Below are positions 3,901 through 61,800 of a stretch of DNA of 64,000 bases, piece after piece. Under the pieces are notes generated by a model. That model searched no databases. It was given only the letters and a program-made list of their open reading frames with translations, and was not told the DNA's origin. Position numbers and translations under genes: made by a program. This DNA is from Anthoceros angustus. Its lineage: Eukaryota > Plantae > Anthocerotophyta. The stretch is taken from NCBI GenBank assembly GCA_010909165.1, contig MU008158.1:1203478-1267477 (forward strand). Direction: 5' to 3'. How positions within the stretch are numbered: the stretch's first letter is position 1; every line of letters starts with the position of its first letter.

Positions 3901-4421
3901 GCACTTTACTACAGCAATATAAATCCGTATTTACTTTACTACGGTCCTGATTACATCAGATTTTTACTACGCGCCTTATTTTGCAGCCATGTGTTTTACA
4001 ACGGCCCGTTATAACTACAGTTCACTGATTAACCTAACCATGGTTACATAACTATGGTTTATAAACTACTGTTATTTAACTTCAGTTAATAAACTTGAGT
4101 TAATTCATATTGGTTACTTAACCATATTTTATTAACCACGATTAGAGTTGTTGTAAATGCCGTTGTAGATCACTGTAGTAATTGTTGTTGTAAAGTGAAC
4201 TGTAGTTAAACCCTAACTGATGTACGGTCAACTCCGTAAAGTATATCGTATGTACGTATGTCACATACGAATACAATATATAGCCATGGTATACGGTGTG
4301 AAGACATTACCACGGAAATTAATGCTATGTGTTTACAACGGGCATTTTACTACAGGTGTAGTAATTCTGTAGTAATGTCCGTAGTAAATTCCGTTGTAAA
4401 GGACACGTTTTCCTAGAAGTG
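916..4421. mobile_element. CACTA (En/Spm) DNA transposon, probably non-autonomous, inserted into the copia pol
   Basis: 5' TIR CACTACTAGGAAAA at 916 and 3' TIR TTTTCCTAGAAGTG ending at 4421. 3-bp TSD CCA at 913-915 and 4422-4424. Dense subterminal TTTAC(T/A)AC repeats at both ends. Confidence 0.92.
3040..3860 (+). pseudogene. Degraded TnpA/Ptta-like (Transposase_24-like) coding remnant inside the CACTA element
   Basis: Joining frames gives YTCFGHGG.RGFLDRFRGKFGREPTVDEIRAVGTVH, resembling the Ptta/En-Spm 'H..G..G...K.GREPT..E' motif. Frameshifted; no DDE TnpD seen. Confidence 0.45.
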
Positions 4422-6068
4422 CCAAGAGTCGAACAAGCACCTATAGAGGTGCCTGTGCTTCGTCGGTCAGGCAGGATTACACGGCCTCCTGACAGGTATG
4501 ATCCATCTCTGGATTATGTCATGCTGACAGATTGTGGGGAACCCTCTTCTTACAAAGAGGCCATGTCAATGAGTAACAAAGAGAAGTGGGAGAAGGCCAT
4601 GCAGTCAGAAATGAATTCGCTGCATAAGAACCAAACTTGGGAGTTGGTTCGGTTGCCTAGGGATAAGAAGGCACTCTGCAAATGGGTGTACAAGATGAAG
4701 GTCATACCCCTTGATGGCAAACCAAAGTACAAGGCACGATTGGTTGCTAAGGGTTTCAAGCAACAACCGTGCATTGACTTTGATGAGATTTTCTCACCAG
4801 TAGTCAAAATGACAACTTTGCGATGTGTTCTTGCTTTGGTTGCCAGGAATGATATGGAACTTGTACAGATGGATGTCAAGACGGCATTCTTGCATGGTGA
4901 CCTTCAAGAGGAAGTCTACATGCAGCAACCAGAAGGTTTTGTTGAGAAGGGCAAAGAGAATCTGGTGTGCAGGTTATGGAAGAGCCTTTATGGTTTGAAA
5001 CAGGCACCCAGAGAGTGGTATCACAAGTTCCACTCATTTATGCTTTCTCAAGGCTACAAACGTAGCGATGAGGATCATTGCCTCTATACGAAGCAAGCTA
5101 AGGATCAAAGCTTGCTCATTTTGATCCTCTATGTGGATGATATGCTAATTGTCGAACAGTACTGATGAGATTTCAGCGTTGAAGTCAAAGTTGAATGCTC
5201 ACTTTGAAATGACAGACTTGGGAGAGGCGAGCCATATACTTGGCATGCGTATTCGTCGGAACAGACATAAGCGTCTGCTTTATTTGTCTCGCATAATACA
5301 TTAACAGTGCTTCAACGCTTCAACATGGAGAAGGGAAACCATTGGGTACCCATTGCCTCCATATGTGAAACTTTCAAGCGGATTGCCCAAGCTCGAGGAG
5401 GACAAAGTCGAAATGGAGAAGGTCCCATACTCATCACCGTAGGGAGTTTGATGTATGCAATGATTGCTACACGCCCGACATTGCCTTTGCGGTGGGAGTG
5501 GTTAGCGAGTTTATGTCAAACCCCGCAAGAAGCATTGGGAGGCGAAAAGGAGTTATGAGGTATCCGAATGGTACAAAAGCTTTGTGCATATGTTTTGGTA
5601 GTGAAGATGCATGTGGTTGGGTACATGATGCCGATTATGCAGGGGATATGGACAAAAGGAGGTCCACATCAGGTTATGTCTTCATGTGCACTGGAGGGGC
5701 AGTCTCATGGCGATCTCGTTTGCAGTCGTGCATTACGCTATCTACCACAGAGGCCGAGTATGTTGCAAAGAATCGAGGCTTGCAAGGAAGCCATATGGCT
5801 TGCCTGCTTAGTGGGAGACTTGGGGATCAAGGTTGAGTCGCTGTTGCATTGTGATAGCCAGAGTGCTATCCAATTGGCAAAGAATCCAGTGTTTCATGCG
5901 AAGACTAAACATGTGGATGTGAAGTATCACTTCATTCGAGAGGTGTTGGATGACAAGAGGGTACAACTTGTCAAGGTTCACACCAGCCAGAACCCTGCAG
6001 ATATTCTTACCAAGGGACTCTCTACGGAGCAATTTGCACAAGCTCGGACACTGATGGGCATGAGGTAG
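4422..6068 (+). mobile_element. Ty1/copia reverse transcriptase + RNase H (frameshifted)
   Basis: KARLVAKG, QMDVKTAFLHG, LYGLKQAPREW, LYVDDML, DADYAGD..KRRSTSGY, LSTTEAEY, CDSQSAI, KHVDVKYHFIRE, NPADILTK. Confidence 0.95.
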
Positions 6069-11199: not shown

Positions 11200-11556
11200 C
11201 ATGGCGCACGGAACTTTCCGCTGTTACCGCGCCGCAAGTGACATCAGTTACCCATTGCAATGTAACTGGCTATCCGGCGTGCGCCAATCGGCTGCCCCTC
11301 CGCCAGATACTTACCACCTAGGGCTTACTCGGCGGGACACTTTCACTTTTAGGGCACGCAACACCCCCCGACACCCAGCCCCACACGCATAACACAAACC
11401 CACGCATACAAATACCATGCACCCCACCTATGAGGACTCAACATCAATTCATAACTTCTATCTTAACCACAACATGGTCAGTTATGGAAGATCACTTACC
11501 GCTCTTTCCTTTTTACTCCGACCCTTGGGGGTCTCCCCACTGCTGGATGGGCTCTC

Positions 11557-13655
11557 TTCATCATCTCTCCTCCCTCAATAATGTTTTCTTTCATATGGCG
11601 CCGTCGCTCATAACAACGCACTATCTTTCCTTCCATGTGGCGCCGTCGCTCATAACAACGCACTATCTTTCCTTCCATGCCCTGATATGTATAAGCAAAT
11701 GATTCTAACTATATTAGTCCTCATTATAAAATATATAATAAAAATATATTCTAATCTCTAGTGACATCATCAATCGTCAATTCTCTACGACATTTCATCC
11801 CTATTTCTACATGAAGAGAAGTCATCAAAATCAAAAACAACTTTGCCTGTCCATGATGGTTCCTCAAAGCCGCTCGGATTGCCTACCAAAGGCTATCTAT
11901 CACTAAAAGCCATTCTGGTAGCCGACCACCAAAGACTATCTACCTTCAAAGGCAGTTTAATGGCCTTCCAAGGACTTCAGGAATGGAGGACTCCCTACAC
12001 ATGCTAGTTGCATAAGCAAAAGACTGAATACTGAAAGAAGTCTCACGCCTCAAGATCTCTGGAGGACTCCCTACACATGCTAGTTGCCTAAGCAAAAGAC
12101 TGACTAAATCGAAAGAAGTCTCGCGCCTGTGTCTCCTAGTATCCCTCACAAGAGTTCTGACTAGTGAAAGAAGTCTCGCCTCGGTCTCCTAGTATCCCTC
12201 ACAAGAGTTATAGCTAGGAGACTTTGCAGACATGGATAGGAGACTTGGGGACGCCTCACCAAGATCCCGGAGTATCCCTCACATGACTATAGCTAGGAGG
12301 CATTGGAACACATGCAAATGGCACTTGAGACGCGGACGACTCGCATAGGAGACTCGGGAAATACATCTAAGACGTACTACTTGCACCGTGACTTAGGAAG
12401 TACAAAATATTTGACTCACACGAAAGCTAGGAGACTTCAAGAGAATTGGGGACTCGTAAGTATACAACTTGCACAAGGAGACTCGGCATACATGATGAAA
12501 GCTCCGGTGGCACACATATGTAGCCTTTTGCTGCGCAAATCCCGATAACATAATTCATGCGAGAATGCAAAGGACACGCGCGTCATCTTGAGATTATTCC
12601 TTCATCATCTCCTCCCTCAATAATGTTTTCTTTCATATGGCGCCGTCGCTCATAACAACGCACTATCTTTCCTTCCATGTGGCGCCGTCGCTCATAACAA
12701 CGCACTATCTTTCCTTCCATGCCCTGATATGTATAAGCAAATGATTCTAACTATATTAGTCCTCATTATAAAATATATAATAAAATATATTCTAATCTCT
12801 AGTGACATCATCAATCGTCAATTCTCTACGACATTTCATCCCTATTTCTACATGAAGAGAAGTCATCAAAATCAAAAACAACTTTGCCTGTCCATGATGG
12901 TTCCTCAAAGCCGCTCGGATTGCCTACCAAAGGCTATCTATCACTAAAAGCCATTACGGTAGCCGACCACCAAAGACTATCTACCTTCAAAGGCGGTTTA
13001 ATGGCCTTCCAAGGACTTGAATGGAGGACTCCTACACATGCTAGTTGCATAAGCAAAAGACTGAATACTGAAAGAAGTCTCACGCCTCAAGATCTCTGGA
13101 GGACTCCCTACACATGCTAGTTGCCTAAGCAAAAGACTGACTAAATACTGAAAGAAGTCTCGCGCCTCCAGGTCTCCTAGTATCCCTCACAAGAGTTACA
13201 GCTAGTGAAAGAAGTCTCGCGCCTCCAGGTCTCCTAGTATCCCTCACAAGAGTTATAGCTAGGAGACTTTGCAGGACATGGATAGGAGACTTCGGGACGT
13301 CTCGCGCCTGAAGATCCCGGAGTATCCCTCACAACAGCTATAGCTAGGAGGCATTGGAACACATGCAAATGGCACTTCGAGACGCGGACGACTCGCATAG
13401 GAGACTCGGGAAATACATCTAAGACGTACTACTTGCACACGTGACTTAGGAAGTACAAAATATTTGACTCACACGAAAGCTAGGAGACTTCAAGAGAATT
13501 GGGGACTCGTAAGTATACAACTTGCACAAGGAGACTCCGGCATACATGATATGAAAGCTCCTGGTGGCACACATATGTAGCCTTTTGCTGCGCAAATCCC
13601 GATAACATAATTCATGCGAGAATGCAAAGGACACGCGTCATCTTGAGATTATTCC
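11557..13655. repeat. Tandem duplication of a ~1.05-kb repetitive unit (11557-12600 / 12601-13655)
   Basis: Colinear near-identical copies differing mostly by small indels; internal sub-repeats such as GGAGGACTCCCTACACATGCTAGTTGC and GGCGCCGTCGCTCATAACAACGCAC. Confidence 0.9.
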
Positions 13656-15404
13656 GTCATCATATTTGAGCTCAGAGGACTTGCGTCATATTGAGATTAT
13701 TCCTTCATCATATTTGAGCCCGGAGGACACGCGTCATCTTGAGATTATTTCAAGGATAACTTCCTTACTATAAAGATATAGAGGACACGCGTCGGCCCTA
13801 GATTATTTCTTCATCATGTTAGATAAATAGAGCACGTGTTCGTCAAAGATTATTCCTCCCTCTATGGAGAAGTTAGATGATAGAAAATTAAATGTAGCGT
13901 TTCCAAGCACTGAGGACTAGATTAGGTGCCCAAGTTATGGTAGGAGCCTAGAGTAAAATAACTTTCCTTTAAATATGGAGAACTGGAAAAGTAAATTATT
14001 AAGTACAAAAATCTGCATTTTTTATTCAGCATAATACTTGTTTCTCTAGTTATGGAGGGAGCCGAAGTTTAACTAGAGGAGCCTAGGGTTGAACTAGTTT
14101 TTCATTCATATGTGGAAGACTCACGAGGTACATTATCTTACCTTTTCTTTACTTTTTCGTGACAACATGAGGATTTCACGTTTTTTTAGTAAAAATGATT
14201 TCACGTTTTTTTAGTAAAAATGTTTTCACGTTTTATTTGCTATTCGGTCCTAAAGTTTTTTATAGTAAATTATTTAAATGGATGCGAAAGAGCACTAAAA
14301 AAAGCTATTCAAATGGATATATGTGTATGGCACTAAAAAAAGCTATTTAAATGGATATATGTGTATGTTGTTTCAACTTAAAAAAACGATTGTATACAAA
14401 ATTTCTTAAGAACTTATACAGTAATGAATGGAAACTTCTAAGAAGTCTTAAGAGAGCCTTGTCCGATCACTATTACAATAAGAGATCACTACTACAATAG
14501 GAGATCACCTATCCTGATTGTCCTTGCCCCTTGTATATCGGCTTATCTATGAGTAAAGTATTTAGGACCCTGCTTAAAGGCCATTCGCGACTCTCTAGAG
14601 ACATATATGATCTCTGATTTGTGAAGCTCTTCGAGGCCTCTATTTTTCGAGGCCCCTATTGTAAGCCTTTCAAAGCAACTTCCGTCGCATCACTACCGGC
14701 ATGGGGGTAACCTCGGAAAATATTAACAGTAACCTCTGCTTGATAATGCGGAATAAGGATGCTCTGTGCTCCATATTGCGGAGCAGGGATCAGATGTGAC
14801 CATTCAATATGATCAAGTTTCTTTCATTAGCTTCCAAAAACTAATGCATCGTTTCTCCAATCTTGTCACCAACCAATCAACCAATAATGACATCTTAATA
14901 GTCTAACACGTATAGTCATAAATCCTCCTTATCTACTCGGTATAAGTTGTGGTAGTGAGAAAAAAATTTTGTTGTCAAATCTCTTATAAACTAGGGACGT
15001 GACATGCTCACCACATTGGTTGAAACGTTGGTCTTATTCTTTTGTTATTTTCTCATATATTATCATGTATTTTTCTCAAGATTCTTTATCCATCCCCACT
15101 ATGTCCATGCTATTCCACCAAGAAGGGCCAAAGTTTTTTCCATGTTTTTTTGGATTGATATTGGCCCTCTCATGGTTGTCACATTTGAGTGACTCACAAG
15201 AGTGCCGCAACATACACCCACACCTTTCAAGACACAAGGAACATTATTTCCAAAAAATTATGATTTTTTATTCAAAAAAAGAACAGCAAGACCATCTTAC
15301 CAACATGATACGATACACATTGTTTTTTAAAAGTTTCTTAAACTTATACATGCCTAATTTTTACTTAGTTTCTAAAAACTGACCCTAAATTTTCAAAATC
15401 GGGG

Positions 15405-50435: not shown

Positions 50436-51634
50436 TCAGCGGAATTCAACAAGAGCCCGGCCAAGCACCTTCCCCTGACTCAAGGCCGAGTAGGCCTGAT
50501 CCGCCTCCTCCAGGCTGCATCTGTGGGTGACAGCAGCCTTGAGATCGAACGCCCCGGTCCGAGCCAAGGCGATGATATTGGGCAGATCCTGGCGAGCCCT
50601 GGCCCCGTATGAGCCGATGATACGAATCTGCCTCCTCACGAGACGGGTTATGTCAATTCCAGCCACTTCCCCCAGCTTCGGCAGCCCCACCATGACGGCC
50701 CTGCCCCCGTCCCGCACAGCCAGGGACGCCTGCACGAAAGTGGCGGCCTTCCCCAAGGCCTCCACCGCCACGTCCACCCCCTTCCCGCCCGTGATCTCCC
50801 GAATCCTCTCCACCGCGTCCTCCTCGGCGGCGTTCACCGTGTGCGTAGCCCCATTCCCCGCGCCTTCTCCAGCTTGCCCTGGTCCACATCCACTGCCACC
50901 ACGACGGTGGCGCCGAAGGCCTTGGCCAGCTGCACGCAGCCGCCCCGACCCCGCCCACCCCGACCACCGCCACGCTCTCCCCGGCCCGCAGATCCGCCGC
51001 ATTCCGCATCGCCCCGTAGGCGGTGAATATGGCGCACCCCATGATGGCCGACTCCGCGTACGGGAGCTCCTCGGGGAGCAGCGCCACCGCCGAGGCCGGT
51101 ACGACGCAGAACTCCGCCAGCCCGCCCATGCTGTACATGGCCACCGGCCGCCCGGACCCCGCCAGGAACAGCCGCGTGTGCCCGTCGTAGAGTGCGCCGT
51201 GCGCGCGGTTGTGGCGGAAGAACTGCTCGCACAGATCCTCCTGCCCCTTCACGCAGAAGAAGCATCCTCCGCAGGGCATGATGAACGCTCCCACCGCCCG
51301 GCTACCAATCGGGAGCCTCCGCGGGTGGCCGCGTCCGTCCCCGGCCCGTGCTCCACCACCTCCCCGCCACCTCGTGCCCCAGCACGGCGGGCAGCGGGAA
51401 CGGCTGCTCCGCCTTCATCACATGCAGATCGGAGTGGCACACCGCACGCCTCCGTCCGCAACAGCACCTCCCCAACTGCGGCCGCGGGATCTGCAGCTCC
51501 TCGATCACCATCGCCTTCCCCGGCTCCCACAGCACCGCTGCCCGCATCCTGGAAGCTCCCCCCGCCGCCGCCGCCGCCGTCGCCGCGGAATACTGCCGCC
51601 GCACCTGCATCAGCCAGCTCCATCTCTTCATCAT
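50436..51634 (-). CDS. HER2: Zn-dependent medium-chain alcohol dehydrogenase, At5g63620/HER2-like, probably mitochondrial; intronless, with several apparent frameshifts
   Basis: Across frames: MRAAVLWEPGK..EE..IPRP, CHSDLHVMK, GHEVAG, GAFIMPCGGCFFC..G..DLCE.FF..NRA.G.LYDG.TRLFL, MYSMGGLAE, GVDVAVEALGK, RLVRRQIRIIGSYGARARQDLP. N-terminus MMKRWSWLMQVRRQYS resembles a mitochondrial presequence. Confidence 0.85.
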
Positions 51635-52334
51635 CGCCGCCTGTCAGATTCCGAGCTCGGGTTCGCAAATCCCCTCAGTCCCTCGTGGCAGGAGCAGGAG
51701 GGGATACAACGAGGCTTAACTTTTGGACAAACTTCATCTTCCTGGAAAACGTTTCACGGCCCAAACATGTGGACAGATTTTGGACTCTTCTGCGTAACGT
51801 AGCTCAGCCACGCTCGGATATGTCTCTCTGGAGCTAGTTGGCGCGTACAGGCCATGGATGAGATCGAGACTCGGTGGGTGACATGTGGCCTGAGGAATGG
51901 CAGAGACAGCAGGGCCGCACGACGCGTGACACTTTGACAGCAGGCCAGCCTTCTACGCTTCGGAAAAGCTTGCGTCACGCAACGTGCCTGCCAGTGTTGT
52001 CCAAGTTCATAGAATATCCAACTCCTTGCCTCCGAGTCCGCGTTTGCCTATGCTTCAGCGCAGGAGCTTGAAAGAGAAACAAGCGCGGGCTAGTTGAGAG
52101 CAGTATCTGCAGAACGGATGCGGAAGAGAAGCATTGAGCATTGGAAAACATTTGTAGAAATTGGTACACTGTACTGGTGTTACAACCCATCCTGCCAGCA
52201 TTGTGCAGCATGGCACATTGCCGGATCAAGCCGAATCAAAAAACTTGGCAATGAAACACGCTGAGAGCTCCTGCTATGTAGATCCTAGGAGCTCGGTGGA
52301 ATGACATGCAACCGCGAGCACGCAGGGAAAAGCT

Positions 52335-52946
52335 TTAAAACACACCGAAGAATGGGAACAGCTGCACAAACGGAGCGGCCACCAGCAGGATGAGCCCGAC
52401 GGTGACCGGGATGCCCTTCTTCTCCGCGAACGCCTTCCTGAAGCCGCCGGCGGCGTTGATGTGCTCGTAGAGGAGATAGATACCGATAGCCAGGCTGATG
52501 AAGATGGCCAGGGCGGAGTAGCGGCCGACGGCGCTGCCGTACGCGAGGAAGAACGGGGACACCACGACCAGAAGGATGAGAGCCGCGGGGAGCTCCAGCA
52601 CGTCGGGGAAGTGGCGAGGGAAGAAGAGCTTGAGCACCACGGCGATGAAGGCGATCACCTTGCCGAAGCTTCCCCACAGCCAGTTGAAGATGAGGTCCGG
52701 GAGGTTGATGTAGAGGTAGGGGATGAGCAGCGCAGTGAGGAAGTTGGTGCGCCAGTTGGTGCGGTCCAGGACCAGCAGGTAGATGGCGGCGATGGCGGCC
52801 AGCCACTGCAGGAAGCTGGCGGTCCAGGATTCCTGCAGCACCTGCCCGGTGTGCATCGCCAGGCTGTTGACGGCCGCGGCCAGCGCCTTGACGTCGTCGG
52901 AGAGCCCGTCCGTGCGCTGCGCGATGAATGTCCGCTGGAGCCCCAT
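52335..52946 (-). CDS. COR413: COR413/WCOR413 cold-acclimation multi-pass membrane protein, intronless
   Basis: FLQWLAAIAAIYLLVLDRTNWRTNFLTALLIPY..NLP; IAFIAVVLKLFFPRHFPD.LELP; YLLYEHI.A.GGFRKAF. Confidence 0.93.
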   Translation of the reverse strand: MGLQRTFIAQRTDGLSDDVKALAAAVNSLAMHTGQVLQESWTASFLQWLAAIAAIYLLVLDRTNWRTNFLTALLIPYLYINLPDLIFNWLWGSFGKVIAFIAVVLKLFFPRHFPDVLELPAALILLVVVSPFFLAYGSAVGRYSALAIFISLAIGIYLLYEHINAAGGFRKAFAEKKGIPVTVGLILLVAAPFVQLFPFFGVF

Positions 52947-53067
52947 CGCAATCTGCTCTCAGACAGGCTCGATAGTGCAGGGTGGGGCGGGAACTCGCAA
53001 CAACAGCGATGGCAGTGGTGAGGGTGAAGAATGGGGAAGCTGGCTAGGAGCAAAGGAATGTTCGCGC

Positions 53068-53433
53068 TTTTAAATAGACGCACATTCGGGGTTCAATAAT
53101 ATCCCGGTCTGATGGCTGATTGTTAGGGTAAGGCTGCAATGTGGCCACCAGACGACAGGGCGCAGCGCTGGCGAGTCCATGGGACCACGTGCCGCCCTTT
53201 GGCCCCATCCACCTGGGGGCCCAGATTTGCAGCCAGCGCATGCTCAGGGCAAGCGTTTCTGCCGAGCCTTCCCGCCTTCACTTCCCGCGTTGGGATCTAG
53301 GTGGTAGCAATTCGGGTCCCAGGTCTGCTGCGAGCATTTTCAAGTCCTGAAGCTGGCACAGGAAAATGTGCATTCCAAACTAAGTTTTGCATTTTGTGAC
53401 TTTGGTCTTTTTTGCAAGGTCACAATGACGTGG
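53068..53433. promoter_or_regulatory. Divergent promoter elements between COR413 and the SdpI-like gene: TATA-like (53068-53076, -), G-box/ABRE CACGTG (53186-53191), TGACGTGG (53426-53433)
   Basis: Motifs seen directly; function inferred. Confidence 0.45.
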
Positions 53434-53649
53434 TTGATGGAGGGTGTGACGCACAGTGCTTGGCAGGGAAGAAGGGAAGAGGAAAAATTGGCTGACCGTG
53501 CTGTGTCTTATGGACTCCGTTGCTCCTGCGGTGTTCCAGGGTGATGCGGTGCTGGAGGGGGCGATGAAGAGGTCGAGCATGACGGAGGAGAAGTGAGGGA
53601 GGAGGTTGAGCTCGGCAGCCCCTTTCGGGAAGGGAGGGCGGAGGGCAAG

Positions 53650-54300
53650 ATGCAAGTCACGGGCTTCAAGGGGGTGCAGGCGGCTCTTTTTGCTGCGGTG
53701 CTGGGAGTGTTGTTGTCGCTGGGGTTCTTGGCATGGCTGCCGTCTTACATGGTCATATGGGGGATGCATGTGCCCCGGTTTGTGGGACTGTTTCTCATTC
53801 CCGTCTTGGGCCTGGTGCTTTCGGGGCTTCTCTCGCTCATTGTGAGTTGCGACCCACATCTGGTTGACCATTCCTCCAACTCCCGGGCCGCCATTTGGGG
53901 TGTGGTGGTCCTACCTTCGGTGTTCGCGGTGCCGGTGCACGCTGTTGCGCTCTGGGCTAACGCCAGACACGAGGATCTGGGCATCACCCCTTGGGTTTTT
54001 CTGTCGGGCTTGCTGCTTATATACTTGGGGGTGATATTCAGGTATGTGGAGCAGAATTATGTTGTGGGCATCAGGGATGTGTGGACTCTGAGAAGCTCTG
54101 AGGTGTGGGAGGACACTCATCGCTGCGCTGCTGTTTTGTTTGTGATCTTTGGAGTGGTGGGCCTTGTGCTTACTTGGTTCGTGCCCGCTGGGCTCCTTCA
54201 GATTGTGACCATCGTGGGCCTGTTTGTCGTCCCTAGTGTCATCTCCGTCGTGTATTCTTATATCATCAGGTCTGATAGGTATCAATACATTGTGAGGTAG
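53650..54300 (+). CDS. SdpI/YfhL-family six-TM membrane protein (bacterial toxin-immunity-like), intronless
   Basis: Six hydrophobic segments; signature QNYVVGIRDVWTLRSSEVWEDTHR matches the SdpI consensus N..GIRT.WTL....VW..THR; FVGLFLIP and CDP resemble the SdpI/DUF1648 N-terminal half; 216 aa from ATG 53650. Confidence 0.82.
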   Translation: MQVTGFKGVQAALFAAVLGVLLSLGFLAWLPSYMVIWGMHVPRFVGLFLIPVLGLVLSGLLSLIVSCDPHLVDHSSNSRAAIWGVVVLPSVFAVPVHAVALWANARHEDLGITPWVFLSGLLLIYLGVIFRYVEQNYVVGIRDVWTLRSSEVWEDTHRCAAVLFVIFGVVGLVLTWFVPAGLLQIVTIVGLFVVPSVISVVYSYIIRSDRYQYIVR

Positions 54301-55216
54301 GTCTACCTGTCTTTATTGCTCCAATATACCTTTTCTAGCTACCTATTTGGTACTTGAATGTCTTCCTAGCGCATTAGCATACCTACTATGTAAGGATAAG
54401 TTTTCACATCTCTCATGGCCAACTGGCTCTGGTACAAGGTGTTTTTTTTTGACACTCCTGATGAGCTGAGGACCTAGCACACGGGGATGTCTGTCACGAC
54501 AATCTCGTGTACATATTGTGGAACATAAAAAATGCGTGCCTCAAACCTGCCCATCATATATTTCCTCTGCAGCTAGAGCTCATCGTTGCCCTGAAGTTGG
54601 GATTCTCTGTGGTGGGCAAAACCACTTCAAAACAGACGACATCTTGACTTATGTGCCATCAGTTCATGCAAAGTTTAGAAACCCGGAAGGATCACATTAC
54701 ATAGCTACATCTCCTTTTATGAAGCAAACCAGATGGCTTCAACACAACAAAGATCATACATAGCCCTGCTGCAAAACTGGGTCATTCAAATATGTGAGCT
54801 ACCGAGGAGAAACTAATACAGCCCGGCATTGCTACAACATGCCGAGCTGGTTGTAAACAAGCCGAGCTGCAGGATGGCACCCACAAGGAGGCAGGGCTAG
54901 TCTGTTTGAGCGTCACTAACAGGTGGCCTACGTAGGTAGGTTTGCGCAAGGCTGAAAGGAAAAACAGCACCTGTCATTCCTGCTACTAGACCTGCCGTGG
55001 ACTAAAGCACGCTTGGCACGTCAGGCCCTGTGTTGCGCGGTTGCCTGGACATTTCACTTCAGGCTGGCTGGTTCATAGTTATGTGTATTTCTATAAAACT
55101 CTTGGATGGCACGTTTACCGCACATCATTTTGCTCTCTCCCTGTGTATCGGCAAATTCCGCAATAACGCTACGGCATCTGCTCGCTCCTGCCATTAGCAA
55201 GTCTGGTGTAGGGACG

Positions 55217-56552
55217 ATGTCAGCTATGGCCCAGGCCACGTATGAAGGTGTTACTTCGAGTTCCCGCCCGCTTCCTCATTTGCAGTATTGCGCCCTATTG
55301 CTGTCTCCGGATCATCCTGACTTTTGGGTGTGTGCTTTTCTGTTACTGAAGAGGAGCCAGCTCAAAATGCTCAAACTCCTACAGCTCGCTCGGCGGACGA
55401 GCAAAAAAGACTTGGGAGCGTGGCCCGCAACATCATTCCTCACATTTTGAACCTGTTCATCCTCTCTCACCTTCTATCCTCACCTATGAATTTTCAATTT
55501 CTCGTCCCAGTCCTCGGTTTGCATCGCAGACCTAAATTACTTCTCTCTGCCGGTGCAGCTATAATTGTACAGCTACCGCAAGCGATTTCGAAATCTACTC
55601 ACAAGATGCCACCTTTGAAGATCCTCTCATGCGTGCTCGCGGGTAACATCTCTGTCTCTCTCACCTTGCCAGGTGCAATGAAGTAGGTGGAAACAAGCTT
55701 AGGTCGGTCAGTGACTTCATGTCGTCCTGGTTACTGCAGTGTCCCACAGATCAAGTCCGCGTTCTATTCAATCCCTAAAGTAAGTCTTTAGTCCTCTTGG
55801 CAGTGTCTGACACTGCTTTGATGCTGAGAGCCAGGAGTTCATGACAGTGGCAAGGTATAACCTGTTGAACTTGGCAGGTATTCAAAGAGGCGAAGCTTGC
55901 AGAGTACGAAGTTGAAGAGGTAGAAACAAGTTCGGGAACTGGCGAAGTGAGTGCTTTCCCGATGGTTCTTTCACTTCCTTCGTCCAAAATATTACACTAA
56001 TTATTGCATACCTGTATGAAAACATTCCACACTTCCATACCTGGTGGCTTCGTTTGTGTCCAAGCAGATAAGGATCAAAAACCTGCAACATTATAAGATC
56101 GCGGGGCGACAAATCGACATGAATTCTCTCATTAAGTTGCAGGTCAGAGACCCTAGTGCTGCTTGGCTGGTTGTATCTTCAAGCTGTGATACCTTCCAGT
56201 GTTCACATTGAAAAATGGAGTATTCACTAACAACAGGTTCAACTTTTCGTTGGCGCGGGCTGATTCTTGCTGCCATCTGGTTGATGCAGGTTGAAAACGG
56301 TCTAGTTGTGAGGCATGAGGATTTGTAAGTACATGTTAACCTTACCCTTGTTATGCTACATGTTGGTTTCTTTTCCATTTTCATGATTGCCTGCGGCAAT
56401 ATTAGGTGGGAGGGAAACCCCTGTGGAACAAGGACACGATCAAGTGGCCGCTGGTCGGTCGTGCAGCATCGGCATTGCGGCGAGGGAACATGTTCGTGAC
56501 TCATGCTTTCATGGGTTTTGGGAAGGATCCAAAGCCGGAGGCAAACAGCTGA
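55217..56552 (+). CDS. NTF2/SnoaL-like plant protein (At5g04830-like), copy 1; 1-bp G deletion in the last exon (error or pseudogene)
   Basis: Spliced exons give IIPHILNLY..DFEIYSQDATFEDPLMRARGVPQIKSAFYSIPKVF..IKNLQHYKIAGRQIDMNSLIKLQVENGLVVRHEDLW..KPLWNKDT..PLVGR..RRG.MF.THAFMGFGKDP. Confidence 0.82.
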
Positions 56553-57313
56553 AATTGATTTCTGCAGTCCATAACCTTAACCCTCACGAAACCTGAGGCC
56601 CACTGTACATACAGATATGTAATACTCCTCTTTCATGCGTACAGAAAAGTTGTGAAAAATGAGTGGCTGGCATGGAAGTTTGGTTGCTCTCATTGTCTCC
56701 CACGTGTCACGGTGTGTTACGTATCTTTGCAAAATAACCATGAGATTTTTATTGAGGTGAAAAAGGATGGGAAAAGGAGGGACCAACCAAAGGGGACCGG
56801 GGTTGAGTGGAGAGGAGCAACTAAGCTCCCTACCTAAAGTCATCTACTGCACCCACAATGTCATAAATGGTCCGCAAACCACGAAGGTAGAGGAAGATGC
56901 GTCACCCATCGCCGCCGACTTGTGGAGGATCGCCATTGAGAGTGCCCGTTGAAGGGCAATTGAAACCCGTTGTCGAAGTATGCCGTGAAGTACGAGGGAT
57001 GTTTGAGCGTCACTAACAGGTGGCCTACGTAGGTAGGTTTGCGCAAGGCTGAAAGGAAAAACAGCACCTGTCATTCCTGCTACTAGACCTGCCGTGGACT
57101 AAAGCACGCTTGGCACGTCAGGCCCTGTGTTGCGCGGTTGCCTGGACATTTCACTTCAGGCTGGCTGGTTCATAGTTATGTGTATTTCTATAAAACTCTT
57201 GGATGGCACGTTTACCGCACATCATTTTGCTCTCTCCCTGTGTATCGGCAAATTCCGCAATAACGCTACGGCATCTGCTCGCTCCTGCCATTAGCAAGTC
57301 TGGTGTAGGGACG

Positions 57314-58648
57314 ATGTCAGCTATGGCCCAGGCCACGTATGAAGGTGTTACTTCGAGTTCCCGCCCGCTTCCTCATTTGCAGTATTGCGCCCTATTGCTG
57401 TCTCCGGATCATCCTGACTTTTGGGTGTGTGCTTTTCTGTTACTGAAGAGGAGCCAGCTCAAAATGCTCAAACTCCTACAGCTCGCTCGGCGGACGAGCA
57501 AAAAAGACTTGGGAGCGTGGCCCGCAACATCATTCCTCACATTTTGAACCTGTTCATCCTCTCTCACCTTCTATCCTCACCTATGAATTTTCAATTTCTC
57601 GTCCCAGTCCTCGGTTTGCATCGCAGACCTAAATTACTTCTCTCTGCCGGTGCAGCTATAATTGTACAGCTACCGCAAGCGATTTCGAAATCTACTCACA
57701 AGATGCCACCTTTGAAGATCCTCTCATGCGTGCTCGCGGGTAACATCTCTGTCTCTCTCACCTTGCCAGGTGCAATGAAGTAGGTGGAACAAGCTTAGGT
57801 CGGTCAGTGACTTCATGTCGTCCTGGTTACTGCAGTGTCCCACAGATCAAGTCCGCGTTCTATTCAATCCCTAAAGTAAGTCTTTAGTCCTCTTGGCAGT
57901 GTCTGACACTGCTTTGATGCTGAGCCAGGAGTTCATGACAGTGGCAAGGTATAACCTGTTGAACTTGGCAGGTATTCAAAGAGGCGAAGCTTGCAGAGTA
58001 CGAAGTTGAAGAGGTAGAAACAAGTTCGGGAACTGGCGAAGTGAGTGCTTTCCCGATGGTTCTTTCACTTCCTTCGTCCAAAATATTACACTAATTATTG
58101 CATACCTGTATGAAAACATTCCCACACTTCCATACCTGGTGGCTTCGTTTGTGTCCAAGCAGATAAGGATCAAAAACCTGCAACATTATAAGATCGCGGG
58201 GCGACAAATCGACATGAATTCTCTCATTAAGTTGCAGGTCAGAGACCCTAGTGCTGCTTGGCTGGTTGTATCTTCAAGCTGTGATACCTTCCAGTGTTCA
58301 CATTGAAAAATGGAGTATTCACTAACAACAGGTTCAACTTTTCGTTGGCGCGGGCTGATTCTTGCTGCCATCTGGTTGATGCAGGTTGAAAACGGTCTAG
58401 TTGTGAGGCATGAGGATTTGTAAGTACATGTTAACCTTACCCTTGTTATGCTACATGTTGGTTTCTTTTCCATTTTCATGATTGCCTGCGGCAATATTAG
58501 GTGGGAGGGGAAACCCCTGTGGAACAAGGACACGATCAAGTGGCCGCTGGTCGGTCGTGCAGCATCGGCATTGCGGCGAGGGAACATGTTCGTGACTCAT
58601 GCTTTCATGGGTTTTGGGAAGGATCCAAAGCCGGAGGCAAACAGCTGA
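57314..58648 (+). CDS. NTF2/SnoaL-like plant protein (At5g04830-like), copy 2, apparently intact, 8 exons
   Basis: Same exons as copy 1 with GT-AG sites; last exon open (RWEGKPLWNKDT...GFGKDPKPEANS*). Confidence 0.87.
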
Positions 58649-58843
58649 AATTGATTTCTGCAGTCCATAACCTTAACCCCTCACGAAACCCGAGGCCCAC
58701 TGTACATACAGATATGTAATACTCCTCTTTCATGCGTACAGAAAAGTTGTGAAAAATGAGTGGCTGGCCGCGGAAGTTTGGTTGCTCTCATTGTCTCCCA
58801 CGTGTCACGGTGTGTTACGTATCTTTGCAAAATAACCATGAGA

Positions 58844-61800
58844 TTTTTATTGAGGTGAAAAAAGGATGGGAAAAGGAGGGACCAACCAAAGGGGACCGGG
58901 GGTTGAGTGGAGAGGAGCAACTAAGCTCCCTACCTAAAGTCATCTACTGCACCCACAATGTCATAAATGGTCCGCAAACCACGAAGGTAGAGGAAGATGC
59001 GTCACCTACTGTCGCCGACTTGTGGAGGATCGCCATTGAGAGTGCCCGTTGAAGGGCAATTGAAACCCGTTGTCGAAAGTATGCTGTGAAGTACGACAGG
59101 GACAGCCCCGCACCGTGTTTGCGCGCATGGTTAGCTTTGGCACAGGACTTGACGAATTTGTCAAAGTCCTCAGCCATTGCCCCGTACGTTTCTAGTGCAA
59201 GCGGAATAAAGAGGTGGCCTGCTTGCATCCTGCTATATTTGCGGACCTTGAGAGCCGCTACTCCAGCAGCAGCCCAACCTGGACGGTTAGTGATGACCTA
59301 AGATGGTGTCTCGTGTAGAATCGGTAACCACCACATCTGCCACCGAAACCTGGTTGCCACGGACAAGGTATGTGTCACTGTTAAACATCCAGACGGAGAG
59401 TATACACCTGCTCCCTCCAGCCATGTAGCCACTTTCGCGAGCGATGGCGAACATGACATCGCGGATGGCGTCGTGAGTGGCAATGCGATGACCCCCGTAG
59501 GGACAACGAGCAAGGTGTTCCCCAGAATCATCGAGGGCAGAGCCGCACTCGCAAGTAAGGAGCGAAGAAGCCACATGCTGGAGCAGGCCAAGACGAAATC
59601 GCATCGCACTAGTGAAGGTGGTTGGTGCGATGTGAAGACCTCATATGCATGGGCAGGTCAGTAGCCAAGCACCTGCGCCCTTCCCAGAACAAGAGCGAAG
59701 CTGCGCTCTTCTAGACTTGGGGATGCAGGGGTCCTGGAGAACAGATTGGAAAGCCAGGCCGAGCTGCTTCTCAAGCAGGGATGCCTGCAACCCCCTGAAA
59801 CCATCAGTAATAAATGTCTAGAAAGGAGGGAAGTCTTTCCGAGCATCCACTGATAACATGTCCCTAGCTTGCCTCAAGTACATTTAGAGAGAGAAGGTTC
59901 CCTCCTCCACACCTAATACGAGATCCTCTAGAAAGAGCCTGTCATGGAGGATGAATCGAGAAGCCAAAGCAGGGGCAGAGAGGGCCCAACTGCCCAAGAA
60001 AGCCGCCGGGGAAGAGACCTCCAGTGAGTAGACTGCCTCCAAATTGCATGTAGGACGCTTGCTGGCTAGATCGCCCACAGGGCACTCAAAAGCCCCTGAG
60101 CCCAGGATGTCCCCAAGAGTATTTATAATCTTCCTATCAAACCGCCACAACCGGGACAAAAGGGTCGGGGACGGAGGCAGCGTACGGATGAGGTAACTAG
60201 GGCGCCTAGCAAAACAGGAGGAAAGAATTCCAAAGGCCACCTGTGTATCCTCCAGCAAAAGGAGGTCCTCGAGCAAATCGTCAATCGGCAATCCCAAAGC
60301 CGGAGCAATCTCCCTAACAAGAAACTGCAAAGTAGGTAGAATCCCCGACGGAGACCAGATGCGGCACTTGGACAGCTTGACCTTCAAGCCCACCAAAGAA
60401 AGCTCATGAGAGAAGAGGTAAAGGCCTCCTTGACTTTGTCCCCAGGCCCAAGGATGTGAGAATAGTCTGCCAGCGAAGGGAAGACATAGTCGCGTGCTGA
60501 GAAGGCGGCCCTAGATAGGGCCCTATAGTGAGCAATGGCGAAGAGAGCACCACCCAGGGGGTCGCCTTGCCTGGTACCTGTGGCCGATTCCAAGACTGAG
60601 ACAGCAAACCCTGAAGAGACGTTCTTTGTGCTGGTAGTAGAGGTTGGAGGACCTCCCGTAGAAGCACCAGACAAAAGGTATAAGGCTCCCCTGGACGCCG
60701 CCAGCATCCCTAAGTTCCTCGAAGATGACGCTCCTAGATATGGTATTAAAGGCGTTCTCGACATCAACCTGTAAGACCACCCACTCCGGATGGGTATCAA
60801 GGCATGCCTTCACTCCAAACACCATAGACTTACAGCCCCCGGAGTGGCAATGCCAAATTGAAGGGGGTTGAGGTGTTGCTAGAGAAGGGAGCGGCACTGA
60901 AGGGCAAAAGTGTGGCTGAGTAGCCGCATGAAGGCTTCCCCGACTGCGAGTGGGCGCACGCCTGACGTGTGCTTGTCCATAGCGACAAGCCTGCTAGCTG
61001 CAAGAACATGGGAAATCCGGTGAGGCGTTTCACCCCGAGCCTCCGCAACGGCCAGAGAAAAGAGCTCTGGGAAACCACTAGATGGATCTTCGGGGAGAAA
61101 AAGGTCCCTGAGTTGTTCAAACACCATTTCTGACAACCCGGCAGATGAAAGACGTGGGGCCGTAGAGAGTGCCAGAGCAAAAGCTGCTCGATCCAGAGAG
61201 AAGGGATCCTTCGGGACATAGTTGGATATGTCCGGGGGATGGCATCCTTGGGTGTTGGATGGAGGGCACGGAGGGCAACAATGGTCTCTTCAGAAGCGGG
61301 GGCCATAGGGAGGGGTCGAAGAGCCTTGGCAGCGTGAGCATATTCACCTACCTAACCAAGCAACTTGCAACGGCGCAGGTTTGTTGCATTATCCGGGACC
61401 TGTTCCAAGTGCTGTGCGGATTCCGCCCGAACCTTGGCAGCATGCAAAGCCTCCTCCTAGAGGGATGCCTAGTCACCATCGCGAAAGCGCCGAAGACGGC
61501 TAGCAACTTCCCGATGCCCAGAAACCCTACCCCTAGTACACCAAAGGCACCACCGGGGGAGAAGCAGGAGAAGGCACTAAGCTAGCTCGTCCTGGGGATC
61601 GAGCGCTAGGCAATCCAAGGGAAGACGGAACGCCAAACGGGCATCATAATGAAGGTGGCGGGGAAGCCTGCGGAAGATGCACGGGCATGGAAAGTGGGTT
61701 TCAAACATCCCAAGGATGTGATCCAGCTGACCCCGCAACCATTCCCAGGAAGAGAGAGGCACCCCAGGGAGGACGATACTGGATGCCGGAGCCTGGAGGT

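Follow-up and report, generated by a model that had tools for sequence, protein, structure and literature searches.

How a small membrane protein of a prokaryotic-type family came to be encoded among the genes of a hornwort, and what it might do there, is the question raised by one locus of Anthoceros angustus. It lies in a stretch of 64,000 nucleotides that was analysed as a whole and is referred to below as the window. Our preferred answer, to which we give a probability of about 45%, is that the locus is a spliced nuclear plant gene, likely derived from a prokaryote, whose product would tether a cytosolic plant protein at the membrane rather than capture a toxin.

The coding sequence extends over 53650..54300 of the plus strand, a stop-free frame of 216 amino acids plus the stop codon, and it matches a spliced contig from sequencing run X1. 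Translation, hydropathy analysis and an AlphaFold model reproduced the originally predicted frame with its six transmembrane segments, and the motif QNYVVGIRDVWTLRSSEVWEDTHR maps exactly to 54052-54123, as claimed. The hydrophobic segments fall at residues 12-30, 47-65, 85-103, 112-130, 160-178 and 183-201, and the model, computed from 130 sequences, consists of six long helices with a mean pLDDT of 93 and a pTM of 0.87. The predicted inner side carries nine of the 11 K/R residues, and the predicted topology is N-in/C-in. Against the Pfam SdpI profile (PF13630) the protein scores 54.3 bits (E 1.5e-14; cut-off 28.2), so that the family assignment made from the letters alone is upheld by profile search, and four further plant-type proteins score 47-49 bits. 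Motif 2 of the SdpI family is found between helices 4 and 5, with T143 and P144 altered; DUF1648 (PF07853) matched neither this protein nor any of the plant-type proteins scanned (6/6). The ORF belongs to the broad SdpI/YfhL family (PF13630), and its product is not of the complete SdpI-SdpR-SdpC type: the missing motif 1 excludes that type and not membership of the family, since members carrying one motif only are described in excerpts of PMC2910880. A weak match to NCBIfam MgtS fell below the cut-off, as did one to Pfam DUF4405, and neither was retained. Searches with the protein gave no sequence match in the PDB at E<=1 and no Foldseek match at E<=0.001, and the best VIA match (Z 8.3), a designed helical repeat, was rejected as a generic helical match.

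Linkage to plant DNA is given by a DNA contig from run X2 which covers 51672-56500 in one piece and at even depth, thereby spanning the upstream COR413 gene, the SdpI frame and the next gene downstream. The X1 contig, from the same sample, lacks the segment 53368-53539, which has GT..AG ends and is retained in the X2 DNA; it also omits the introns of the downstream gene, several of these joints being common to run X3, and over 53540-55242 it shows 0 differences and 0 gaps relative to the window. None of the sequencing runs is recorded as RNA and X1 is RNA by guess; its contig runs across several genes and gives neither the start nor the level of a transcript. The omitted segment reads GT-AG on the plus strand only and ends 110 nt before the ATG, and it was therefore assigned to the leader of the SdpI gene as an intron of 172 nt (53368..53539, plus strand). 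It separates the 3' end of leader exon 1 (53358..53367, plus strand) from the leader part of the second exon (53540..53649, plus strand), the contig being joined 53367->53540. The second-exon leader is 51% G and contains an in-frame stop at 53542-53544. Four out-of-frame ATGs precede the start codon in the spliced leader, one created by the splice joint and the others at 53544, 53564 and 53579, and they open frames of 5-10 codons; these upstream frames are not conserved, since five moss-type loci have no ATG within the 110 nt before the start codon. Possible alternative splice acceptors at 53597 and 53636 would give a short in-frame extension, and no contig uses either.

The earlier description of the ORF as intronless therefore holds for the coding part and not for the gene, given its leader intron. 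An upstream ATG at 53510, which was thought capable of adding an acidic N-terminal extension if the assembly had an indel, proves to be intronic; with the in-frame stop at 53542 and the gap-free match of the X1 contig, both the extension and the indel are refuted. We conclude that the SdpI gene is a spliced host plant gene and not contamination, in agreement with the original prediction, and that, going by a single spliced contig (X1, RNA by guess), it is expressed. In six runs of a related organism, B, the SdpI frame was uncovered at 80% likeness; four DNA or unlabelled runs among them missed COR413 too, so that this is no evidence of SdpI loss.

The flanking genes are those expected. The gene for a COR413 cold-regulated membrane protein (52335..52946, minus strand) is divergent from the SdpI gene, lies on the X2 contig and matches PF05562 with E 5.5e-63. 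The downstream gene (55106..56552, plus strand) is spliced as predicted, with GT-AG joints in X1 and X3 and an open spliced frame; going by its translation, it is presumably NTF2-like. The T-rich 3' flank was also real: 54301-54450 is 40% T as against 26% across the window. Plant genes of the window comprise, besides COR413, those for a U-box/ARM protein, a zinc dehydrogenase, a bromodomain-BET protein and a mitochondrial carrier, an SNF2 exon and an RVT_2 retroelement, a fragment of which lies at 4365-5165. Overall GC content is 49.7%, and introns of the genes near SdpI measure 97-147 nt. In accordance with the earlier remark that no sdpR-like gene is visible, an ArsR profile detected no ArsR/SdpR-like frame at E<=1 in the six frames of the window (control locus L093: E 1e-47), and it had no match in three 16.6-kb Sphagnum-type loci.

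Some further features of the region are recorded here in their own right. COR413 and the SdpI gene stand head to head, with about 420 nt from COR413 to the end of the first exon (52946-53367); a shared promoter with cold or stress co-regulation is possible, and the arrangement is not kept in the Sphagnum-type loci. The zinc dehydrogenase gene (50436-51620, minus strand) appears frameshifted, and runs X1, X3 and X9 carry an extra C in the C-runs at 50848, 51318, 51361, 51441 and 51469; a pseudogene was accordingly rejected and the frameshifts are attributed to homopolymer assembly errors. The downstream spliced gene is contained in a 2.1-kb tandem duplication (54903-56995 and 57000-59096; 99.1% identity), the copy being either recent in origin or an artefact of assembly. 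Another tandem duplication, about 1.07 kb long, occupies 11556-12608 and 12600-13663 (95.7% identity). Broken frames at 59287-61351 (minus strand), two of them lacking a Pfam match, presumably represent a non-LTR retroelement, which they resemble.

Word-index searches yielded P0002 (216 aa, 68% identical to the window protein) as the sole plant-type match, alongside prokaryotic-type proteins, and missed the Sphagnum proteins, so that their blanks are uninformative on range. A HMMER search of 1.84 billion representatives with a profile of P0001 and P0002 returned 2406 matches at E<=0.001. Among the best 150, which were examined, P0145 scored 216 bits, P0146 183 and P0147 102, the remainder reaching at most 76, and P0147 alone bridges the gap. 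The P0145 cluster has 25 members, and the 15 listed include Sphagnum fallax, S. magellanicum, S. jensenii, S. balticum and S. troendelagicum; the named Sphagnum orthologues sit on contigs of 16-30 Mb. A metagenome scan produced 12 loci from 114 pattern matches, four of Sphagnum type, three further ones of plant type (L085-L087, with 42-44% identity to the protein of the window) and five with weak matches that were excluded from further use. Taken together, plant-type orthologues on Sphagnum chromosomes and other plant-type contigs are 42-68% identical. The closest prokaryotic-type relative among 128 homologues in one alignment shows 33% identity, and no prokaryotic relative exceeded about 37% over most of the length. 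None of 34 pattern matches on viral contigs was a relative, no relative was found on plasmids, and the protein-cluster atlas, which holds clusters of at least 50 members, contained bacterial SdpI clusters only.

The Sphagnum gene (Sphfalx16G059500/Sphmag16G058700; KAH8938003.1, KAH9537550.1) encodes a protein 45% identical to that of the window over its full length, with the same short loop, CDP, GIRD-x-W and YQYIVR, in a single 657-bp coding block on LG16. It differs in having a spliced cyclophilin gene as its neighbour and no synteny with the window by tblastx, and its products are deposited as hypothetical or uncharacterised. Three sequences (P0174, P0217 and P0264) are fragmentary, degraded plant-type copies and probably pseudogenes. 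P0148, of 451 aa, is internally duplicated, with two full SdpI units, and is like the 12-helix type of PMC2910880 (excerpts).

In a quick unrooted tree of 47 rows the seven plant-type rows form one clade (SH-aLRT 87, below the starred level) which is nested among prokaryotic-type rows and splits into the window protein with P0002 (92) and Sphagnum with L085-L087 (98). P0147 is sister to this clade (SH-aLRT 99) on a branch 1.5 long, and the next row beyond it is a Myxococcales protein (support 80), with no donor assigned. A first tree (89 rows, two partial ORFs left out) had placed the plant pair on a stem 4.3 long and without a donor; that placement was dropped since additional plant rows shortened the branch. 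P0147 (241 aa) shows 36% identity to the window protein and has in common with it EPN/EQN, the loss of T143 and, beyond the last helix, IRE/IRS. It matches DUF1648 and retains a long outer loop; provided that the tree is correct, the loss of that loop, D143 and the tail arose once P0147 had split off. Its sequence also contains GIRNRW, and its tail ends in TPLLE, reminiscent of eukaryotic dileucine signals. The phylogeny thus bears out the anticipated prokaryotic affinity, with a single plant-type clade, and corrects the view of a gene peculiar to the Anthoceros genome, since it is shared with mosses.

Published tables extend this range. In Table S8 of PMC13069868 Pfam SdpI occurs in 109 of 115 genomes of bryophytes and three of 300 of tracheophytes, the corresponding figures for DUF1648 being 43 and four; these are counts of Pfam matches and not of confirmed orthologues, and the DUF1648 figure means that the outer loop may persist in some of the bryophyte copies. 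In its Table S3 the algal entry for SdpI is 0 combinations, as against 1-4 for six control domains. Table S4 carries SdpI three times, by column count each time as a loss (N10, N2 and the hornwort ancestor) and never as a gain, and among seven hornworts the domain does not reach the 80% core threshold. We read N2, from the way the table is laid out and from section 9 of the text, as ferns plus seed plants, which implies that lycophytes keep the domain. The main text of PMC13069868 never mentions SdpI and its file of transferred core domains has no match; the method drops domains found in 27 reference eukaryotes, which suggests that some non-plant eukaryote has SdpI. Since the gene is shared with mosses and the domain is present in 109/115 bryophyte genomes, any transfer was ancient, and descent inside plants has been vertical and broad. 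The idea that homologues might be widespread across green plants by vertical descent, raised originally as an argument against transfer, applies to bryophytes and fails for algae, where that survey lists none, and for vascular plants, where they are rare.

Moss-type orthologues are under purifying selection. Nei-Gojobori estimates of dN/dS are 0.20 for the Sphagnum-type alleles L081/L083 (eight synonymous and five non-synonymous changes) and 0.07 for L086/L087 (dS 1.26), and the supplement of PMC9946827 (excerpt) gives 0.233 for Sphfalx16G059500, described as a 657-bp autosomal gene of LG16 with an orthologue in a second species. These values come from moss-type pairs, those with the window gene being saturated (dS about 2), and they agree with the domestication that had been proposed. 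Horizontal acquisition followed by domestication accordingly stands as regards prokaryotic affinity, splicing and purifying selection, and it is modified in that there was no one-off transfer, the gene being shared with mosses.

The plant-type proteins are remodelled at three sites, as judged from seven sequences against 128 full-length HMMER representatives, kept from 146 candidates and presumed prokaryotic. The outer loop that links helices 1 and 2 (residues 31-51, the motif 1/DUF1648 region; 53740..53802, plus strand) had been suspected of being shorter than a typical DUF1648 loop, and is: the stretch P31-P51 measures 21-22 aa in 7/7 plant-type proteins and 26-34 aa in 128/128 others. The outer hairpin is 5-7 residues shorter, a His present at 93-98% in homologues is absent from all seven, and the G-x-x-D turn has gone; in the models, the hairpin has 4+4 strand residues as against 6+6 predicted for the Myxococcales protein. 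A second set of 128, including 58 from named prokaryotic genomes, was picked by a motif-2 pattern and is therefore biased towards motif 2. It reveals the same short loop, and of the positions conserved in it at 70% or more, the window protein and P0002 keep 2/12 in motif 1, where 7 residues are lacking, and 17/25 in motif 2. In the loop that joins helices 4 and 5 on the cytosolic side (residues 131-158, motif 2; 54040..54123, plus strand) T143, which is T at 84-97% in homologues, has become D in all seven. Finally, the C-terminal tail YQYIVR (54280..54297, plus strand), also present in 7/7, fits the YxxPhi consensus, a short motif found terminally in three of the 128 other homologues. This consensus binds adaptors, as described for mammalian proteins (PMC5297682, excerpt), and YQYIVR is thus a putative tyrosine sorting signal.

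Invariant positions among the seven amount to 17/28 in the inner loop, 8/12 in the tail and 3/15 in the outer loop, with 2-6 of about 20 in each helix, so that constraint falls on the cytosolic face and is by far the strongest in the inner loop and tail. Motif 2 is also the best-conserved part of the prokaryotic proteins and may be conserved for structural reasons. Helices 1-3 remain intact, with L30, P31, P51, D68 and P69 kept.

These changes can be set against what is described for prokaryotic members. According to excerpts of PMC2910880, whose 87 homologues are all prokaryotic, motif 1 lies outside and is postulated to bind SdpC, while motif 2 lies inside and is predicted to sequester SdpR, though it may bind a dissimilar protein. 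Bacillus subtilis SdpI, compared by description and unaligned (PMC2910880, PMC11995493, PMC13343845), resembles the plant protein in its Pfam SdpI match, length (about 210-220 aa), six helices, predicted N-in/C-in topology and motif 2 between helices 4 and 5. The plant protein differs in its short motif 1 and lack of a DUF1648 match, in the change of GIRTPW to GIRD-x-W and in the added YQYIVR, and its gene, unlike that in sdpRI, has no sdpR-like gene nearby, a spliceosomal leader intron and a eukaryotic host. In Corynebacterium glutamicum, whose genome has neither SdpR nor SdpC, TrpP retains the SdpR-binding half and is proposed to bind another protein (PMC11995493, excerpts); it is a bacterial protein of three helices only, with a different C-terminal extension, and it provides a precedent for a family member working without either partner. 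Around 59 of 80 prokaryotic loci, 62 upstream ORFs included ten ArsR, two GntR and ten SPFH/Band-7 genes, the rest being mixed or unnamed, and most homologues thus lie outside sdpRI-like pairs. An SPFH/Band-7 gene precedes the SdpI gene in ten Chloroflexota loci (L003, L004, L021, L022, L026, L031, L044, L061, L064 and L075), a pairing that hints at a membrane microdomain or quality-control link. Genes transferred anciently into bryophytes (PMC7027989, Table 31, and PMC12513842, both in excerpt) are likewise short and intron-poor, with prokaryotic affinity and a place among plant genes; SdpI is absent from the 11 bacterial-donor rows examined in Table 31 of PMC7027989.

We propose the following course of events. 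An ancestor would have taken an SdpI-family gene from a prokaryote no later than when land plants arose, and for this step, transfer and age together, we consider the case strong. The protein would enter the secretory pathway without an N-terminal extension, both ends remaining cytosolic, and YQYIVR would be read as a tyrosine sorting signal directing it to the plasma membrane, endosome or vacuole; on entry and sorting we are evenly divided. Once inserted, the motif-2 loop may hold a plant cytosolic partner in place of SdpR, the shared T-to-D change may mark the switch of partner, and capture or release of the partner may depend on the state of the membrane, a set of steps inferred throughout and held tentatively. 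The original prediction of a shield or sensor against microbial peptides divides here: the sensor or tether half fits better, and the shield is weakened, since the outer loop proposed for the toxin is short in 7/7 plant-type proteins. The fullest form of the proposal would be that a land-plant ancestor took a toxin-sensing component, cut away its toxin loop, added a sorting tail and rewired the repressor loop to a plant regulator, giving a membrane-stress switch that about 95% of bryophytes have retained and that ferns and seed plants have lost; taken as a whole, this is a speculative picture that we think improbable.

The main rival to the tether is a retained shield, in which helices 1-3 would bind hydrophobic microbial peptides within the membrane and protect microbe-exposed gametophyte cells without a regulator. 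Mutational data summarised in PMC2910880 (excerpts) map immunity to the first half of the Bacillus protein and not to the loop alone, and the persistence of helices 1-3 with their five conserved residues is compatible with this, as are the unregulated immunity proposed there for single-function members, the DUF1648 matches in 43/115 bryophytes (PMC13069868) and the fungi and cyanobacteria that live in hornwort thalli (PMC10030945). We nevertheless judge a shield unlikely: the hairpin and its His are reduced or gone in every plant-type protein, DUF1648 is unmatched in all six scanned, conservation of the outer loops is among the lowest in the protein, and a single-copy gene under purifying selection would be unlike an arms-race defence gene. 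Still somewhat less probable is a housekeeping role in the membrane, as a metabolic regulator or small-solute carrier, unrelated to SdpI functions and with an inner loop that is structural. It draws on TrpP, which in the absence of SdpC and SdpR has effects on tryptophan and Fe-S physiology and at one time carried a transporter annotation, and on the scarcity of sdpRI-like pairs among prokaryotic homologues; the same source (PMC11995493, excerpts) judges transport unlikely and favours protein binding, and the shared T143D and gained tail would point to new cytosolic interactions.

Other alternatives concern origin. The gene may have come through another eukaryote, or by descent from one, instead of passing straight from a prokaryote to early land plants, a route suggested by P0147 as a well-supported sister that keeps the long loop and shares the features listed above. 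PMC13069868 records SdpI as lost and never gained, leaves it out of its transferred core domains and excludes domains of its reference eukaryotes, which would fit a non-plant eukaryotic carrier. Conversely, the domain is missing from every algal genome of that survey, P0147 is the sole bridge among the best 150 of 2406 HMMER matches and, with its long branch, could be a divergent plant or prokaryotic sequence, and deep vertical descent would need very many losses; we regard such a relay as unlikely. A mention of DUF1648 in fungi (PMC7329392), one entry in a long list of domains, was rejected. Contamination, or a chimeric assembly of a bacterial fragment, could be suspected from the intronless coding part, the prokaryotic-type family and the homopolymer errors nearby, and is refuted by the evenly covered X2 contig, the spliced GT-AG leader intron, the orthologues on Sphagnum chromosomes and the distance from all prokaryotic relatives found.

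Bryophyte presence of SdpI has already been tabulated (PMC13069868), whereas a description of the remodelling and likely origin was not found. No dedicated paper on plant SdpI, as judged by titles and abstract openings, was found in the literature searched; PMC12513842, in its transfer lists, or Ma et al. 2022 may already include the family. A literature search with the Sphagnum gene identifiers led only to an unrelated poplar paper. Ancient transfers into bryophytes are common, with 1,809 families reported in PMC12513842 (excerpt), and as the domain is also tabulated, surprise at this one is limited. Its retention in 109 of 115 bryophytes against three of 300 vascular plants marks a function that matters to mosses, liverworts and some hornworts and was mostly dropped in vascular plants. 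The gene is small and its coding block unbroken, so that a knock-out is possible in moss, liverwort and hornwort models, and the remodelling is sharp and common to lineages, which makes each change directly testable. According to one paper, the Bacillus subtilis protein is the only characterised member of the SdpI family, and the plant gene would inform on a family that is scarcely characterised.
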